The notes beneath the pieces were generated by a model. That model was given only the letters and a program-made list of their open reading frames with translations, did no database searches and was not told the origin of the DNA. Positions 25,324-30,263 of a DNA stretch of 64,000 nucleotides are shown one piece after another. How positions within the stretch are numbered: position 1 is the first letter of the stretch; each line of letters opens with the position of its first letter. The stretch is from a virus. The stretch is taken from IMG/VR virus record IMGVR_UViG_3300034093_003283; one strand, written 5' to 3'. The translations under genes and the position numbers were made by a program.

Positions 25324-25366
25324 ATCTCTAAATAAGCCTGGGACATTATTGTCCAAAGGAGTTCCC

Positions 25367-25879
25367 ATGCGTGTTAGGGTAGTGAATTGTCCAGACAAAG
25401 ACTTCAAGCCTTTTGTAGAAAGAGCTGCCCAATTCTACGCCAAAGAACTTGTGCCTAACACCAGAATACGAAACAACTGTTTTACTGAAATTAAATTTGA
25501 TGAATCCATACAAGAATATGGGTTTGCAAGTGTTAAAGAATACAATACAAGAAACAAACCAAGACAATTTTTGATAGAGATTCATCCAGGCATTGGGTCC
25601 AGAAGAATACTAGAAACACTGGCCCATGAAATGGTTCATGTCAAACAGTACATTCAAAATGAAACCAACGACCAGCTGACCAAGTGGCGGGGTAAAAGGA
25701 TCAATTCTGACAAAGTGGACTATTGGGTGCAACCATGGGAAATAGATGCATATGGCCGTGAGACTGGACTACTAACAAAGTTTGCAATTTCAGAACATCT
25801 CTGGGAAATATTTGAAGATTTTGTTAACCCTGGAGAACCAATAGTTAAACAATCAATCCGTTGGAAAATAAAATCTTAA
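25367..25879 (+). CDS. Zinc metallopeptidase-like protein
   Basis: AHEMVHVKQY (HExxH), PWEIDAY. Confidence 0.7.
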   Translation: MRVRVVNCPDKDFKPFVERAAQFYAKELVPNTRIRNNCFTEIKFDESIQEYGFASVKEYNTRNKPRQFLIEIHPGIGSRRILETLAHEMVHVKQYIQNETNDQLTKWRGKRINSDKVDYWVQPWEIDAYGRETGLLTKFAISEHLWEIFEDFVNPGEPIVKQSIRWKIKS

Positions 25880-25899: not shown

Positions 25900-25928
25900 T
25901 TGCCAAGGCTCAAAGTTTACTATATAAT
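25900..25928 (+). promoter_or_regulatory. Sigma70 promoter of tRNA-array leader
   Basis: TTGCCA-17-TATAAT with AT-rich upstream tract. Confidence 0.8.
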
Positions 25929-25960
25929 ACAAACATATTTAATTTTTTAGAAAGAAAAAA

Positions 25961-26080
25961 GTGTCTCTCATATCCCATAAGCCCTTTACGTTACAACTAG
26001 AGTATCGCACAATGAATTGCGCCGATAGCTCATGGGCGATTACAACCGGGTTTTGTGTAGATGAGGGATGGGACGGATAA
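25961..26080 (+). CDS. Putative leader peptide containing all 20 amino acids
   Basis: GTG..TAA, 39 codons: MSLISHKPFTLQLEYRTMNCADSSWAITTGFCVDEGWDG; 33 distinct codons. Confidence 0.65.
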   Translation: MSLISHKPFTLQLEYRTMNCADSSWAITTGFCVDEGWDG

Positions 26081-26100
26081 AAAAGTTCTAAAAAAGACTC

Positions 26101-26145
26101 CAAACACAAGACCCTAGACCTAAAAAATCTAGGGTTTTTTGTTTG
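26101..26145 (+). terminator. Terminator (attenuator 3:4 helix)
   Basis: GACCCTAGA-9 nt-TCTAGGGTT plus T run; 5' arm also complementary to 26048-26058. Confidence 0.8.
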
Positions 26146-26227
26146 TTGTTTCAATACAACACAGTGGTTGCCAGAATCTTTGGTTCTGATACAATACACA
26201 CTTGTTCTTTAAAAATTTGTTGTAGTT
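26144..26227 (+). promoter_or_regulatory. Palindrome + promoter + boxA-like unit 1
   Basis: TGTTGT-N6-ACAACA; TTGCCA-16-TACAAT; GTTCTTTAAAAATT. Confidence 0.7.
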
Positions 26228-26230
26228 TAT

Positions 26231-26304
26231 TCCCGAATGGTGTAGTGGCAGCACAGCAGACTTTGACTCTGTTAGTATAAGTTCGATTCTTATTTCGGGT
26301 GCCA
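26231..26304 (+). tRNA. tRNA-Gln(TTG)
   Basis: Cloverleaf, CCA. Confidence 0.9.
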
Positions 26305-26396
26305 TATTCAAACACATTATAGTGACGCATGAGCAGGTCACCAACTTCCGCTGGTTACGACAATCGTAAGTGAGTGAAGATAGTGTGTTTCAATAT
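26304..26396 (+). ncRNA. Structured inter-tRNA element A
   Basis: 16/17-bp closing stem, internal hairpins. Confidence 0.5.
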
Positions 26397-26489
26397 GGAA
26401 GATAATGCAGGTGGGATGGTCCGCCGACTAGCCTTGAAAACTAGGTTCTCTCAAAAAGGGATGGGGTTCGACTCCTCTGTCTTCCGCCA
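26397..26489 (+). tRNA. tRNA-Ser(TGA), 8/4-type fold
   Basis: 8-bp acceptor, 4-bp T stem, long variable arm, G73. Confidence 0.85.
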
Positions 26490-26497
26490 AATTTTAA

Positions 26498-26571
26498 CTG
26501 GGTATATGATAGTGGCAGTCGCCGAGGTTTGGAACCTTGTAGTGCAAGTTCGATTCTTGCTACCCAGACCA
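26498..26571 (+). tRNA. tRNA-Pro(TGG)
   Basis: Cloverleaf, CCA. Confidence 0.85.
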
Positions 26572-26576
26572 AAAAC

Positions 26577-26666
26577 GGAGAGTGGGCAGGATGGTAATGC
26601 AGCGGATTGCTAATCCGTAGGCTCATGAAAGTGGGCCACAGGGTTCGACTCCCTGACTCTCCACCA
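26577..26666 (+). tRNA. tRNA-Ser(GCT)
   Basis: Long variable arm, CCA; discriminator A. Confidence 0.9.
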
Positions 26667-26668
26667 AT

Positions 26669-26760
26669 GCCAGCGAGACTTGGTAGTCAGAGAGGTCTTA
26701 TACACCTTTTAGCGCCAGATTAGCGTTCTTGATAGGGTTCGATTCCCTACGCTGGTACCA
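26669..26760 (+). tRNA. tRNA with TAT anticodon (Ile), atypical
   Basis: Loop CTTATAC, 4-nt D loop, long variable arm, CCA. Confidence 0.75.
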
Positions 26761-26768
26761 GATTTTAT

Positions 26769-26844
26769 GTTGGTGTGACCCGAATGGCTAGGGAGCAGAT
26801 TGCAAATCTGTTATATGCAGGTTCAAATCCTGTCACCAACTCCA
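26769..26844 (+). tRNA. tRNA-Cys(GCA)
   Basis: Cloverleaf, U73, CCA. Confidence 0.9.
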
Positions 26845-26848
26845 AACA

Positions 26849-26954
26849 TGTTGTAGAAATACAACAGTGCTGGTTGACAAAAGATGTGGTTGTGTTATAC
26901 TTCATACATGAATTGAGAAATCAATCAAACGTTCTTTAAAAATTTGTTGTAGTT
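26849..26954 (+). promoter_or_regulatory. Palindrome + promoter + boxA-like unit 2
   Basis: TGTTGT-N6-ACAACA; TTGACA-16-TATACT; same 24-nt boxA-containing repeat. Confidence 0.75.
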
Positions 26955-26958
26955 AATT

Positions 26959-27033
26959 GCACCTATCGTCTATCGGTTAGGACGCTGCCCTTTCAAGGCG
27001 GAAAGAGGAGTTCGATTCTCCTTAGGTGTACCA
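26959..27033 (+). tRNA. tRNA-Glu(TTC)
   Basis: Cloverleaf, CCA. Confidence 0.9.
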
Positions 27034-27155
27034 TTTGTTTTGCTGATGTAAGCCATGAGGTAAACGTCAACCTTGAGTAACTCTGTATAGAAACGGTAAT
27101 TGCTGCAGCTAATTCCGTTGAGCATAGCAAATAGTGCGTCAGCAAAACAAATGGT
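27030..27155 (+). ncRNA. Structured inter-tRNA element C
   Basis: About 21-bp terminal inverted repeat enclosing about 85 nt. Confidence 0.5.
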
Positions 27156-27162
27156 AGTTTAT

Positions 27163-27237
27163 GGAGGTATAACTTAACGGCGAAAGTAGCTGGCTTTTAA
27201 CCAGTAAATCAGAGTTCGATTCTCTGTGCCTCTACCA
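27163..27237 (+). tRNA. tRNA-Lys(TTT)
   Basis: Cloverleaf, CCA. Confidence 0.9.
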
Positions 27238-27315
27238 TATAAAAACACATTTCAATAGTTTCGACTGTGATGGATAGTTTCTGTTTAGTACAGTATCCGA
27301 AGTGTGTTTCTATAT
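27237..27315 (+). ncRNA. Structured inter-tRNA element B
   Basis: Closing stem nearly identical to element A. Confidence 0.5.
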
Positions 27316-27408
27316 GGAGCAATTGATGCTATGGCGTGTGCATCGGCGGACTGTAAATCCGTCCCCTCCGGGTAAACAATCTTGGTTCGACTCCAAGTTG
27401 CTCCACCA
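27316..27408 (+). tRNA. tRNA-Tyr(GTA)
   Basis: Long variable arm, CCA. Confidence 0.88.
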
Positions 27409-27410
27409 AA

Positions 27411-27596
27411 TCCCGGTACTACTTCCGTTAAAGTAGCGTTTGATTAGCGATAGAGATCCGGTGGCAGAAGACCGTTAGCGGAGTAATCCTGAATCTGATA
27501 GGCAGAATCTCACTGCACACAGACTCCGAATAAATGAGATGGACAGAGTAACTGCTCAATTAAGGGCTGGCGTGGAACCCAGTAGCTTATACTAAT
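27411..27596 (+). ncRNA. Putative multi-hairpin ncRNA
   Basis: Non-coding spacer with several short helices. Confidence 0.45.
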
Positions 27597-27598
27597 TT

Positions 27599-27673
27599 GG
27601 TCTCAAAGTGTTCATGGACGCACGTATGCCTGTCACGCATAAAGAAGGGGATCGTTACCCCTTGGGACCGCCA
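27599..27673 (+). tRNA. tRNA-Asp(GTC)
   Basis: Cloverleaf; variant T loop ATCGTTA. Confidence 0.87.
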
Positions 27674-27681
27674 AGTTTTAT

Positions 27682-27757
27682 TCCGCAGTAGCTCAGTCGG
27701 TAGAGTAGATGACTGTTAATCATTTGGTCGGTGGTTCGAGCCCACCCTGTGGAGCCA
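27682..27757 (+). tRNA. tRNA-Asn(GTT)
   Basis: Canonical cloverleaf. Confidence 0.93.
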
Positions 27758-27765
27758 ATTTTTTC

Positions 27766-27842
27766 CCGTGTGTAGCTCAGCTAGGTAGAGCTCTTGGTTT
27801 GGGACCAAGTGGTCGCATGTTCGAATCGTGTCACACGGACCA
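27766..27842 (+). tRNA. tRNA-Pro(TGG), second unrelated copy
   Basis: Canonical cloverleaf. Confidence 0.9.
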
Positions 27843-27895
27843 ATTTCGCCTTTGTTGACGGCGTATAATAGGATAAGTTGTCAACAACAAATTTT

Positions 27896-27970
27896 GGGCT
27901 GGTAGTGATAATGGGAGCACAGGGGCTTTGCAAGCCTTTAGTCGGGGTTCGATCCCCCGCCGGTCCACCA
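27896..27970 (+). tRNA. tRNA-Ala(TGC)
   Basis: G3:U70 pair, CCA. Confidence 0.92.
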
Positions 27971-27975
27971 AATTC

Positions 27976-28050
27976 GGTTCAGTAGCACAGTGGTAGTGCA
28001 ACTCCTTCATACGGAGTAGGTCGTTGGCTCGTATCCAACCTGAACCACCA
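27976..28050 (+). tRNA. tRNA-Met(CAT), atypical T loop
   Basis: Loop TTCATAC; T loop CTCGTAT; CCA. Confidence 0.8.
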
Positions 28051-28054
28051 GTAT

Positions 28055-28130
28055 GGGTCTTTAACTCAGTGAACAGAGTACTTGGCTACGAACCAAGAAG
28101 TCGTAGGTTTGAATCCTACAAGACCCTCCA
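28055..28130 (+). tRNA. tRNA-Arg(ACG)
   Basis: Cloverleaf, CCA. Confidence 0.88.
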
Positions 28131-28351
28131 AGCCGTTCCGCTTTGTTAGCGGATACTGTGACCCACAGGATAGAAGTGAGGTGACTCTCACGGGTGGTAG
28201 TCTTTAAACCGAAAGGCCGCTGGCAGTGCGATAACGGTCCTGGTCGGGAAGCGGGTGGAGGGTGTGTGTTACAAGGCGTTGAACCAAACGGGGAGCCAAG
28301 TAACAACGGTGCGAGCTGACACACTAAATTACCGCCGCAGGACGCAGAGCA
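28131..28351 (+). ncRNA. Putative GC-rich structured ncRNA (about 220 nt)
   Basis: Nested helices, GNRA loop, GC far above background. Confidence 0.6.
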
Positions 28352-28356
28352 TTTAT

Positions 28357-28430
28357 ACCCCGTTAGCTCAAAGGTAGAGCACCCGGCTGATAACCGGGAG
28401 ACAGAGGATCGTTACCTCTACAGGGTACCA
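28357..28430 (+). tRNA. tRNA-Ile(GAT)
   Basis: Cloverleaf; T loop ATCGTTA. Confidence 0.87.
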
Positions 28431-28436
28431 AATTTT

Positions 28437-28510
28437 TTCTCGCTGGTGTAATGGCAGCATAGCGGTCTCCAAAACCGTTGGTTGGGGTTCGAGTCCCTAG
28501 CGGGAAGCCA
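28437..28510 (+). tRNA. tRNA-Trp(CCA)
   Basis: Cloverleaf, G73, CCA. Confidence 0.9.
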
Positions 28511-28531
28511 ATTTTTATAAAGGTGATTGAT

Positions 28532-29020
28532 ATGAAAAAGTTCGACATAGAAGAAGTCAAAACATTCCTTGCAAAACAAGGACAAGATACCAAAGTGTAC
28601 CTTGGTGCTGACTCTGAAAGAATTAGAGTTAACGGTGTTTGGTATGCTGATTATGCTTTGGCTGTCGTAGTTCATATTGATGGCCGCCACGGTTGTAAGA
28701 TATTTGGTTATGTAGATAGAGAAATGGATTATGACCATAAGAAAAGTAAACCTGCTATGCGTCTGATGACAGAAGTATACAAGGTTTCAGAATTGTTCCA
28801 AAACTTGGCTGACGTATTAGAAGATTTTCATGTTGAAGTTCATTTGGACTTGAACAAATCTGATGAATTCGGAAGTTCATGTGTTGTGCAACAAGCAATA
28901 GGTTATATCAAAGGTACATGTAACATGACACCGATGGTTAAACCAGATGCACCTGCTGCTAGTTTCTGTGCCGATAGATTGAAAAGAATCTTGGCCGAAC
29001 AAGAAGCAGTGCATGTCTAA
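28532..29020 (+). CDS. RNase H-like YkuK/DUF458 family protein
   Basis: YLGADS, RLMTEV, EVHLDLN, KPDAPAAS..AD. Confidence 0.75.
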   Translation: MKKFDIEEVKTFLAKQGQDTKVYLGADSERIRVNGVWYADYALAVVVHIDGRHGCKIFGYVDREMDYDHKKSKPAMRLMTEVYKVSELFQNLADVLEDFHVEVHLDLNKSDEFGSSCVVQQAIGYIKGTCNMTPMVKPDAPAASFCADRLKRILAEQEAVHV

Positions 29021-29051
29021 CAGACCTCCAAAGTAATTAAGTTTACTTTGG

Positions 29052-29127
29052 GCAGTGCTTAGTGTAGTGGTCTGCACCTCTCGCTGTGACCGAGATAGTA
29101 TGAGTTCGATCCTCATAGTGCTGCCCA
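29052..29127 (+). tRNA. tRNA-His(GTG)
   Basis: G-1:C73, CCA. Confidence 0.88.
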
Positions 29128-29137
29128 AAGTAAATTT

Positions 29138-29212
29138 GCCTTGTTAACTCAGCGGTAGAGTGTCTCCCTTACAAGGAGAAGGTCGGCGGTTCGATCCCGT
29201 CACAAGGTACCA
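29138..29212 (+). tRNA. tRNA-Val(TAC)
   Basis: Canonical cloverleaf. Confidence 0.92.
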
Positions 29213-29216
29213 ACAT

Positions 29217-29292
29217 GCTGCTTTAGCTGATGTGGTCATAGCGCTGGTTTGAAGAACCAGTGAAAGAGGTTCGATCCCTCTAGGCAGCACCA
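29217..29292 (+). tRNA. tRNA-Phe(GAA)
   Basis: Cloverleaf, CCA. Confidence 0.88.
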
Positions 29293-29300
29293 ATTATTAT

Positions 29301-29377
29301 ACCCAAGTGACGAAATTGGCAAACGTGTCTCTCTCAAAAGGAGAATTTTGTGGGTTCGAATCCCATCTTGGGTACCA
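29301..29377 (+). tRNA. tRNA-Leu(CAA), short variable loop
   Basis: Variable region only ATTTT. Confidence 0.87.
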
Positions 29378-29378
29378 T

Positions 29379-29452
29379 GCTCTCATAGTATAATGGCATT
29401 ACACATCCTTGGTAAGGATGAAAACCAAGTTCAATCCTTGGTGGGAGCACCA
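29379..29452 (+). tRNA. tRNA-Thr(GGT)
   Basis: Cloverleaf, CCA. Confidence 0.9.
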
Positions 29453-29601
29453 ATATTTTTTATTTCATCCAGTACAAAAAGCTGTTGCCTTGTTTCAAAG
29501 GATGGTGTAAAATCATTGCTGTTGGTGAATGATTTTGTTTCTTGATATGATTCCAATTTATTGGCCATATCGTATAAATCTTTAACATAATTTTTTTCCA
29601 T
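29431..29601 (-). CDS. Small antisense ORF inside tRNA array
   Basis: 56 aa filling an AT-rich spacer; AATAAATA just upstream on minus strand. Confidence 0.4.
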   Translation of the reverse strand: MEKNYVKDLYDMANKLESYQETKSFTNSNDFTPSFETRQQLFVLDEIKNIGAPTKD

Positions 29602-29614
29602 AGAAGTATTTATT

Positions 29615-29691
29615 GCCCCGGTGACGGAATTGGTATACGTGTTGGTCTTAGAAGCCAAATTTTGAGAGTTCGAGTCTCTCCTGGGGCACCA
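29615..29691 (+). tRNA. tRNA-Leu(TAG), short variable loop
   Basis: Variable region only ATTTT. Confidence 0.87.
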
Positions 29692-29698
29692 AGTTTTT

Positions 29699-29768
29699 AG
29701 TTACAGTCAGTACTGTGGGAAGTACAGGTGGACAACACCAGGACAAGGTTCGAATCCAAACTGTAATT
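29699..29768 (+). ncRNA. tRNA-like element without normal anticodon arm or CCA
   Basis: Terminal stem, GGTTCGAATCC T loop, two small hairpins. Confidence 0.45.
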
Positions 29769-29771
29769 TTT

Positions 29772-29846
29772 CTGGCGTTAGTATAATGGACAATACAGTA
29801 GGCTTCTACCCTTCTAATGGGAGTTCGATTCTCTCACGCCGGACCA
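29772..29846 (+). tRNA. tRNA-Arg(TCT)
   Basis: Cloverleaf, CCA. Confidence 0.88.
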
Positions 29847-29850
29847 GATT

Positions 29851-29933
29851 GCGAGTATGGTGGAATAGGTAGACACAAGAGACTTAAAATCTCTCGCTTC
29901 GGCGTACCGGTTCGATTCCGGTTACTCGTACCA
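29851..29933 (+). tRNA. tRNA-Leu(TAA)
   Basis: Class II cloverleaf. Confidence 0.92.
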
Positions 29934-29951
29934 AGTATACCAAAATATTGG

Positions 29952-29980
29952 TTGACAGTTGAATAGAAAGCATATATAAT
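29952..29980 (+). promoter_or_regulatory. Sigma70 promoter before tRNA-Gly(GCC)
   Basis: TTGACA-17-TATAAT. Confidence 0.8.
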
Positions 29981-29989
29981 AACTCTATT

Positions 29990-30064
29990 GCGGGTATGGT
30001 GCTAGTGGTAACACAAGACCTTGCCAAGGTTTAGTTGTGAGTTCGATTCTCACTACCCGCTCCA
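29990..30064 (+). tRNA. tRNA-Gly(GCC)
   Basis: Cloverleaf, U73. Confidence 0.92.
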
Positions 30065-30069
30065 GATTC

Positions 30070-30143
30070 GCCCTATTAGTATAATGGTATTACACCTGTT
30101 TTGTAATCAGGTTACGGCAGTTCGATTCTGTCATGGGGCACCA
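30070..30143 (+). tRNA. tRNA-Thr(TGT)
   Basis: Cloverleaf, CCA. Confidence 0.9.
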
Positions 30144-30151
30144 AATAAGTA

Positions 30152-30180
30152 TTGACTACAACAGATTTTTAGTGTATAAT
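30152..30180 (+). promoter_or_regulatory. Sigma70 promoter before tRNA-Gly(TCC)
   Basis: TTGACT-17-TATAAT. Confidence 0.75.
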
Positions 30181-30189
30181 AGTTTATGT

Positions 30190-30263
30190 GCGGGATTAGT
30201 TTAATGGTAAAACAGCAGATTTCCAATCTTCGGTCATCAGTTCGATTCTGATATCCCGCTCCA
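30190..30263 (+). tRNA. tRNA-Gly(TCC)
   Basis: Cloverleaf, U73. Confidence 0.9.

Follow-up and report, generated by a model that had tools for sequence, protein, structure and literature searches.

Between a metalloprotease-like gene and the tRNA array of a T4-like phage lies a short cassette that is probably a ribosome-mediated (leader-peptide) attenuator of the array, sampling nearly all amino acids. Within this reading, assignment to attenuators of the leader-peptide kind is the part we hold with good confidence, and for the proposal that amino-acid completeness is itself a selected sensing property the balance is even. Sequence comparison supplied the anatomy, conservation, co-variation, composition and signs of translation of the cassette, and recovered the structural features of such attenuators: a short promoter-proximal open reading frame (ORF), an intrinsic terminator and a mutually exclusive antiterminator with one strand in the end of the ORF. 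A regulatory codon run or enrichment for a cognate amino acid, by which members of the class are also recognized, was not found in the leader studied here, which spreads 20 amino-acid types over 39 codons. It also counts against the reading that, in this phage and most of its relatives, a second promoter behind the terminator can express the array without the leader promoter.

The cassette was analysed in a window of 64,000 nt, the whole stretch of DNA considered here, which is part of the 111-kb IMG/VR record IMGVR_UViG_3300034093_003283. T4-like phages that infect freshwater and marine bacteria have proteins similar to those of the source, which appears to be an uncultured freshwater T4-like phage. 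All genes surrounding the cassette lie on the + strand, in the left-to-right order 176-aa metalloprotease-like gene, leader cassette, tRNA array. The first of these (25349-25879, +) encodes a SprT/WLM-like protein with an HExxH motif, weak SprT-like and WLM-like matches and a match to phrog_10499; across hundreds of IMG/VR contigs, this gene is the constant left-hand neighbour of tRNA arrays. Relatives were gathered through the 176-aa protein, with one query yielding 80 IMG/VR loci and a second adding 76 more, and nucleotide and profile searches placed the cassette directly downstream of the homologous gene in ~50 IMG/VR loci. A tRNA array follows in every leader locus, and the cassette carries no annotation in any record examined. 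Near and distant DNA searches of the phage GenBank collection returned no relative of the cassette region, and the neighbouring gene's protein matched distant T4-like phages only. In Stenotrophomonas phage DLP_6, the 176-aa gene homologue does not adjoin tRNAs, and a simple scan of the tRNA region revealed no clear cassette. Relatives with few tRNAs mostly lack the cassette, as does a relative with 20 tRNAs (L137); it is therefore an accessory module and not a universal one. Lake-water metatranscriptome contigs from four studies span 25955-26103 at 99-100% identity, and close relatives of the phage appear to be widespread in lakes, with DNA carry-over possible in metatranscriptomes. These contigs, which show only that RNA libraries contain the region, end before the terminator, an end that we rejected as evidence of termination or transcription; the break is probably an assembly effect, since the terminator hairpin is found in more than one context (loose ends at 26111 and 26143).

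The promoters of the region are sigma-70-like. The leader promoter P1 (25900-25928, +; TTGCCA-17-TATAAT) agrees with the consensus at 11 of 12 positions, keeps both hexamers in the aligned relatives and has a predicted start near 25935. Downstream, the leader ORF runs from a GTG at 25961 to a TAA ending at 26080 (+), comprising 39 sense codons and a stop, behind a purine-rich Shine–Dalgarno (SD) sequence, AGAAAG (SD and start codon, 25949-25963, +), that is weak by comparison with the AGGAG or GGAG typical of the phage's other genes. The frame encodes all 20 amino-acid types with 33 distinct codons, and its first 27 codons are all different. An earlier sequence-only reading of the window had pointed to this promoter, to this ORF and its codon diversity, to a terminator at 26110-26140 and to the antiterminator pairing described below, adding as reservations the weak SD and a second promoter; every one of these elements proved to be present.

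Several lines of comparison indicate that the leader frame is probably translated, because it stays open, changes length in threes and carries matched start signals across relatives. It is open in every relative (~50 loci), and 25 representatives, partly found through their translation, hold 0 stops in this frame against 45 and 79 in the other two. Five leaders too divergent for the profile and found by position (L030, L031, L072, L081 and L075) are open too. Wherever the distance between conserved anchors differs, it does so by a multiple of three. The start takes two interchangeable forms, either a leaderless ATG 6-7 nt after the -10 box, as in many relatives, or an SD-led form with an inserted 25-30 nt and AGAAAG, AGGAAG or GGAG placed 6-8 nt before an ATG, GTG or TTG. 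Searches of Pfam and PHROGs at E up to 1 returned no family for the peptide of the window or for that of L031, and the peptide of L072 gave only a chance-level PHROG match (E = 0.29). In two further loci (L122, 6808-6813; L126, 1333-1338), the leader ATG meets the stop of an upstream small basic-protein gene, abutting it directly in L122 and lying 10 nt apart in L126; neither leader shows a promoter of its own, and the arrangement suggests translational coupling or co-transcription with the upstream gene.

The RNA from 25935 to 26145 folds more stably than shuffled sequences (z = -3.7). When leader and neighbouring gene were compared over the same locus pairs, synonymous divergence was 0.218 in the leader versus 0.487 in the gene, and non-synonymous divergence was equal (0.085 versus 0.084), a pattern indicative of constraint on the nucleotides themselves. 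Consensus folding of MAFFT alignments with RNAalifold, whether of the entire element or of its mid-ORF hairpin, gave no or almost no consensus pairs, the 3' arms being misplaced by indels, and helices were assessed instead by per-sequence folds and by duplex tests comparing arms of the same locus with arms mixed between loci. By these measures, three helices covary among relatives that keep the frame open: a mid-ORF hairpin (H1), the antiterminator (2:3) and the terminator.

The antiterminator joins segment 2 (26048-26058, +; pairing extendable to 26068) to segment 3 (26104-26114, +), which overlaps the terminator 5' arm by 3 nt (26112-26114). The two strands are complementary at 11 of 11 positions with one G-U pair, and segment 2 is a near-copy of the terminator 3' arm and the start of the T-run. 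All 33 representatives can form this duplex, at -13 to -24 kcal/mol and overlapping the terminator 5' arm, and arms from the same locus pair better than mixed arms (-17.3 versus -13.1 kcal/mol, p < 5e-5). A sequence-only alignment gave 79% paired with 5 of 11 pairs changed on both sides, and a slid register scored nearly as well; these weaker column counts arise because indels and T/A runs make the pairing register ambiguous. Where the terminator stem is altered (L030, L049 and L078), segment 2 is altered along with it. The leader stop codon (26078-26080, +) lies between segments 2 and 3, and in 33 representatives the stop falls about 0 to 18 nt after the segment-2 core and 11-30 nt before segment 3. 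The intrinsic terminator (26112-26140, +) consists of a 7-bp stem (26112-26118/26128-26134), a 9-nt loop and a T6 run (26135-26140), with 84% of cells paired and 5 of 7 pairs changing on both sides; a simple terminator scan missed this + strand hairpin only because its loop exceeds 8 nt. H1 (26000-26031, +) was found in 19 of 19 representatives tested, its arms pairing at -13.9 kcal/mol within loci versus -10.1 when mixed (permutation p < 5e-5), and its inner stem is swapped or lengthened between clades by compensating changes that preserve pairing; it is a possible RNA polymerase pause site.

Upstream, the C/A-rich segment 1 (25976-25984, +) is a candidate anti-antiterminator that pairs with segment 2 in the minimum free energy fold. 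Its same-locus duplexes reach -11.2 kcal/mol versus -10.2 for mixed ones (p about 0.01), and because this co-evolution is weak the state adopted without translation is uncertain. Of the 1:2, 2:3, 3:4 layout proposed from the window alone, the 2:3 helix and the terminator held, and the particular 1:2 pairings listed for it did not. Those pairings between early and late leader (TCCCAT/ATGGGA and others) are not conserved; they involve the C-terminal extension, which outside the window's clade occurs in just one relative. H1 and a weak early segment are conserved instead. In Rfam, nothing beyond tRNAs passed the gathering threshold over the region, whether T-box or other family, and the best match, Thr_leader (23.5 bits versus a threshold of 55, E = 0.45), covered the terminator only.

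Beyond the terminator, promoter P2 (26168-26195, +; TTGCCA-16-TACAAT) precedes the first tRNA and would bypass the attenuator in this phage; a strong promoter of this kind is found in 28 of 38 leader loci, window included. In several lineages, together at least 16 loci, the interval from terminator to first tRNA contains no promoter; the first tRNA then begins 2-16 nt past the T-run or is separated from it by a gap holding a boxA-like motif alone. The 2-16 nt spacing between terminator and tRNAs recurs in at least 14 loci. Since no promoter follows the terminator in loci that lack P2, array transcripts there would have to read past it. The boxA-like motif of the window (TGTTCTTTAAAAA...; 26203-26219, +) lies ~28 nt before the first tRNA and has a second copy at about 26931-26947; it is also found downstream of the terminator in the P2-less loci L022, L078 and L072. 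By analogy with the E. coli rrn boxA, on which the role of NusB/NusE is based, the motif suggests rrn-type antitermination of the tRNA-array transcripts. Following tRNA promoters, it is kept in 30 of 38 leader loci and reads CGCTCTTTAAAAA in L022 and TGCTCTTTGACAA in L072. The array itself (26231-30263, +) holds 28 genes called by ARAGORN and a tRNA-Ser(TGA)-like gene (26397-26485, +), making 29 that cover all 20 amino acids. The additional gene received no ARAGORN call and matches the Rfam tRNA-Sec model at 33.7 bits, and relatives have a called tRNA-Ser(tga) at the corresponding position.

The direction of the switch and the signal to which it would respond are inferred as follows. P1 would start a transcript opening with the translated 39-codon frame as its first 120 nt, and pairing of segment 2 with segment 3 would sequester the first bases of the terminator 5' arm. 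A ribosome that has travelled through the frame and come to rest close to the stop, over segment 2 or immediately behind it, would leave segment 3 free, allowing the terminator (26112-26140) to form and transcription to stop. A ribosome delayed earlier in the frame would permit the 2:3 helix as soon as segment 3 is made, and polymerase would read through, past the boxA-like site, into the tRNAs. Because the frame represents nearly every amino acid by one codon or a small number of codons, tRNA synthesis would go up whenever almost any of them was decoded slowly. P2 would provide the basal tRNA supply of this phage, and P1 read-through a regulated supplement.

Masked folding with a 28-nt ribosome footprint in 31 relatives, which yields equilibrium predictions, is consistent with this order of events. 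Of the 31 relatives, 26 adopted the terminator fold as free RNA; with a ribosome at codon 6 or codon 12, masking segment 1, the antiterminator formed in 24 and 21, respectively, and with one at the stop the terminator formed in 27. For nascent RNA ending before the terminator 3' arm, the antiterminator formed with the ribosome anywhere up to ~5 codons before segment 2 and did not form when the ribosome occupied segment 2. The window's clade carries a six-codon extension that places the stop 19 nt past segment 2, and here the masked fold with a ribosome at the stop keeps the antiterminator; because a terminating ribosome would not cover the segment-2 core in this clade, any block would have to act sterically or through timing.

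The composition of the leader is unusual under the codon usage of the window, the post hoc probabilities being about 6e-4 for at least 33 distinct codons in 39, about 3e-3 for all 20 amino acids and about 2e-5 for at least 27 non-repeating codons. Among 37 unique peptides of 31-41 residues, 22 contain all 20 types and 12 contain 19, and of five more divergent leaders (L030, L031, L072, L081 and L133) four have 20 types and one has 19; with uniform amino-acid frequencies, such completeness has P = 0.002-0.08 per sequence. Chimeras resampled by column averaged 17.9 types versus 19.35 in the real sequences (P < 5e-5), a comparison over 17 representatives below 65% identity that treats related sequences as independent. 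Singletons of His, Cys, Val, Pro, Gln and Asn occupy different positions in different clades yet are retained. At least nine types are dictated by RNA motifs, with Gly-Phe-Cys-Val in segment 2 and Glu-Tyr-Arg-Thr plus Asp in H1, and the only Gly and Val codons often lie at positions where a ribosome that stalled would itself mask segment 2. The conserved property appears to be completeness in amino acids and not in codons, because the synonymous spread is merely that of unbiased usage. The sequence-only proposal of all-codon sensing thus survives in part: amino-acid completeness is kept across diverged relatives, and sensing of every synonymous codon is not supported. Six of the seven codons named in that proposal do lack a Watson-Crick cognate among the phage tRNAs, and U34 wobble tRNAs probably read them. 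A link to anticodon-nuclease defence is speculation.

Short leaders bear on how composition may relate to the array. L122 and L126 have leaders of 21 and 22 codons, six of them Leu, that share the terminator/antiterminator layout, and their arrays are small (Leu, Pro, Thr and Met in L122; Leu, Trp, Pro, Thr, Asn and Met in L126). Residues drawn from the array's own set make up 14 of 21 in the L126 leader (P = 2e-4), 9 of 20 in the L122 leader (P = 0.01) and 11 of 24 in the L085 leader (P = 0.02), these three short leaders being the only ones so enriched; a Trp codon and tRNA-Trp are both present in L126 and both absent from L122. We tentatively suggest, at slightly less than even chances, that the leader acts as a decoding test strip whose amino-acid content co-evolves with the phage tRNA repertoire: ribosome speed over codons served by phage tRNAs would be gauged, and shortage of any would increase transcription of the array. 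The array of the window is complete, and its leader would therefore be complete; leaders before small arrays would be rich in Leu, Pro and Thr, in some cases with Trp and Asn. If correct, the test strip would amount to homeostatic, possibly anti-tRNase, control of the virus-encoded tRNA supply. For the L018 clade, we rejected a leader that mirrors its array: with 16-18 amino-acid types, the leader shows no enrichment for the clade's 10-13 tRNA types and has no Gly codon despite a tRNA-Gly.

Whether completeness matters at all is the point on which the nearest alternative differs. In that account, which we regard as unlikely, the attenuator is real and senses only the timely arrival of a ribosome, that is overall translation capacity or coupling, and completeness is a by-product of RNA motifs, unbiased codons and ancestry. 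The types fixed by segment 2 and H1, the unbiased synonymous usage and the L018 clade, whose 16-18 types do not match its array, all speak for it, and few independent events stand behind the chimera result. Against it, all 20 types in 31-39 residues are improbable even with uniform frequencies (P = 0.002-0.03 per sequence), sequence-unrelated leaders reach 19-20 types too, and the short leaders favour the amino acids of the few tRNAs behind them; the six shifting singletons, kept in spite of their changes of position, also count against it.

Two further accounts dispense with attenuation. The cassette could be a small protein-coding phage gene of the usual kind that has a promoter and a terminator of its own and happens to lie beside the array, the tRNAs being made from P2 or by leakage through the terminator, an improbable explanation in our view. 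Its separate transcription signals, the position of P2 as the next promoter in 28 of 38 loci, a non-synonymous divergence as low as that of the neighbouring protein gene, and the two Cys and conserved Trp of many members fit such a gene. However, Cys is not conserved in several clades, Pfam and PHROGs offered no family match, and the conserved residues coincide with RNA helices whose interiors change residues while pairing is kept. A protein gene would also leave unexplained the composition, the complementarity, maintained by co-evolution, of the ORF's end and the terminator 5' arm, and the placement of tRNAs just 2-16 nt past a terminator in 14 or more loci. In the second account, which is very improbable, the cassette is a structured RNA without coding function, whether an sRNA or a riboregulator to which a protein or a tRNA binds, and the open frame is incidental. 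The folding stability and the constraint on synonymous sites would suit it, and the tRNA region of T4 is known to encode stable RNAs whose function is unknown; yet the frame is conserved in many lineages with indels in threes and matched start signals, and no Rfam family matched.

Read as a leader-peptide attenuator, the cassette resembles trpL, hisL, leuL, pheL, thrL and the multivalent ilvGMEDA leader in having a promoter-proximal short translated frame, an intrinsic terminator ahead of the genes under control, an antiterminator overlapping the terminator 5' arm, a stop placed so that a finished ribosome would prevent the antiterminator, and a possible upstream partner for segment 2. It differs from these enterobacterial leaders in that it is phage-encoded and the genes regulated would be tRNA genes rather than those of biosynthetic enzymes, and in representing nearly every amino acid by a single codon or a few instead of carrying a run of one codon type. 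Other differences are the bypass promoter of most members, the weakly supported 1:2 helix and the many leaderless mRNAs. T-box riboswitches similarly tie the state of the tRNA pool to terminator read-through through an alternative antiterminator, but they recognize uncharged tRNA by direct binding, need no translation and regulate genes for synthetases and amino acids.

Stalling on an upstream ORF is reported to relieve a terminator in the mycobacterial whiB7 leader and in B. subtilis vmlR, the signal being slow translation generally and not the lack of any one amino acid (e.g. PMC10274678, PMC9226507). The mechanism proposed here shares with these leaders the sensing of general translation slowness through a short upstream frame; unlike the cassette, whiB7 and vmlR are bacterial resistance or stress genes and respond chiefly to antibiotics or particular starvation. 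To our knowledge, neither an amino-acid-complete frame nor an output of tRNA genes is a feature of those systems. Phage tRNA arrays are usually treated as constitutive aids to codon usage or as spares against loss of host tRNAs, and we know of essentially no account of how their expression is controlled. A literature search that covered few subscription journals returned no description of attenuators before phage tRNA genes. If the reading is right, this would be the first leader-peptide attenuation known to govern tRNA genes and the first such attenuator designed to monitor many amino acids, or all of them, in place of a single one, and the cassette would offer a compact natural sensor of global decoding capacity.

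Two other elements were observed around the cassette position. An inverted repeat, TGTTGT-N6-ACAACA (26144-26161), separates the terminator from the -35 box of P2 and is preserved in the aligned relatives with compensating changes; it may serve as an operator or form a second hairpin. In 12 relatives (L043, L045, L048, L050-L052, L058-L060, L064, L077 and L113), a conserved tRNA-like RNA of ~85 nt, ending ...CCACCGCTCCA and receiving no ARAGORN call, is located downstream of the 176-aa gene, some 20-110 nt past a TTGACA promoter, and in these few-tRNA relatives it sits at the position of the leader cassette.
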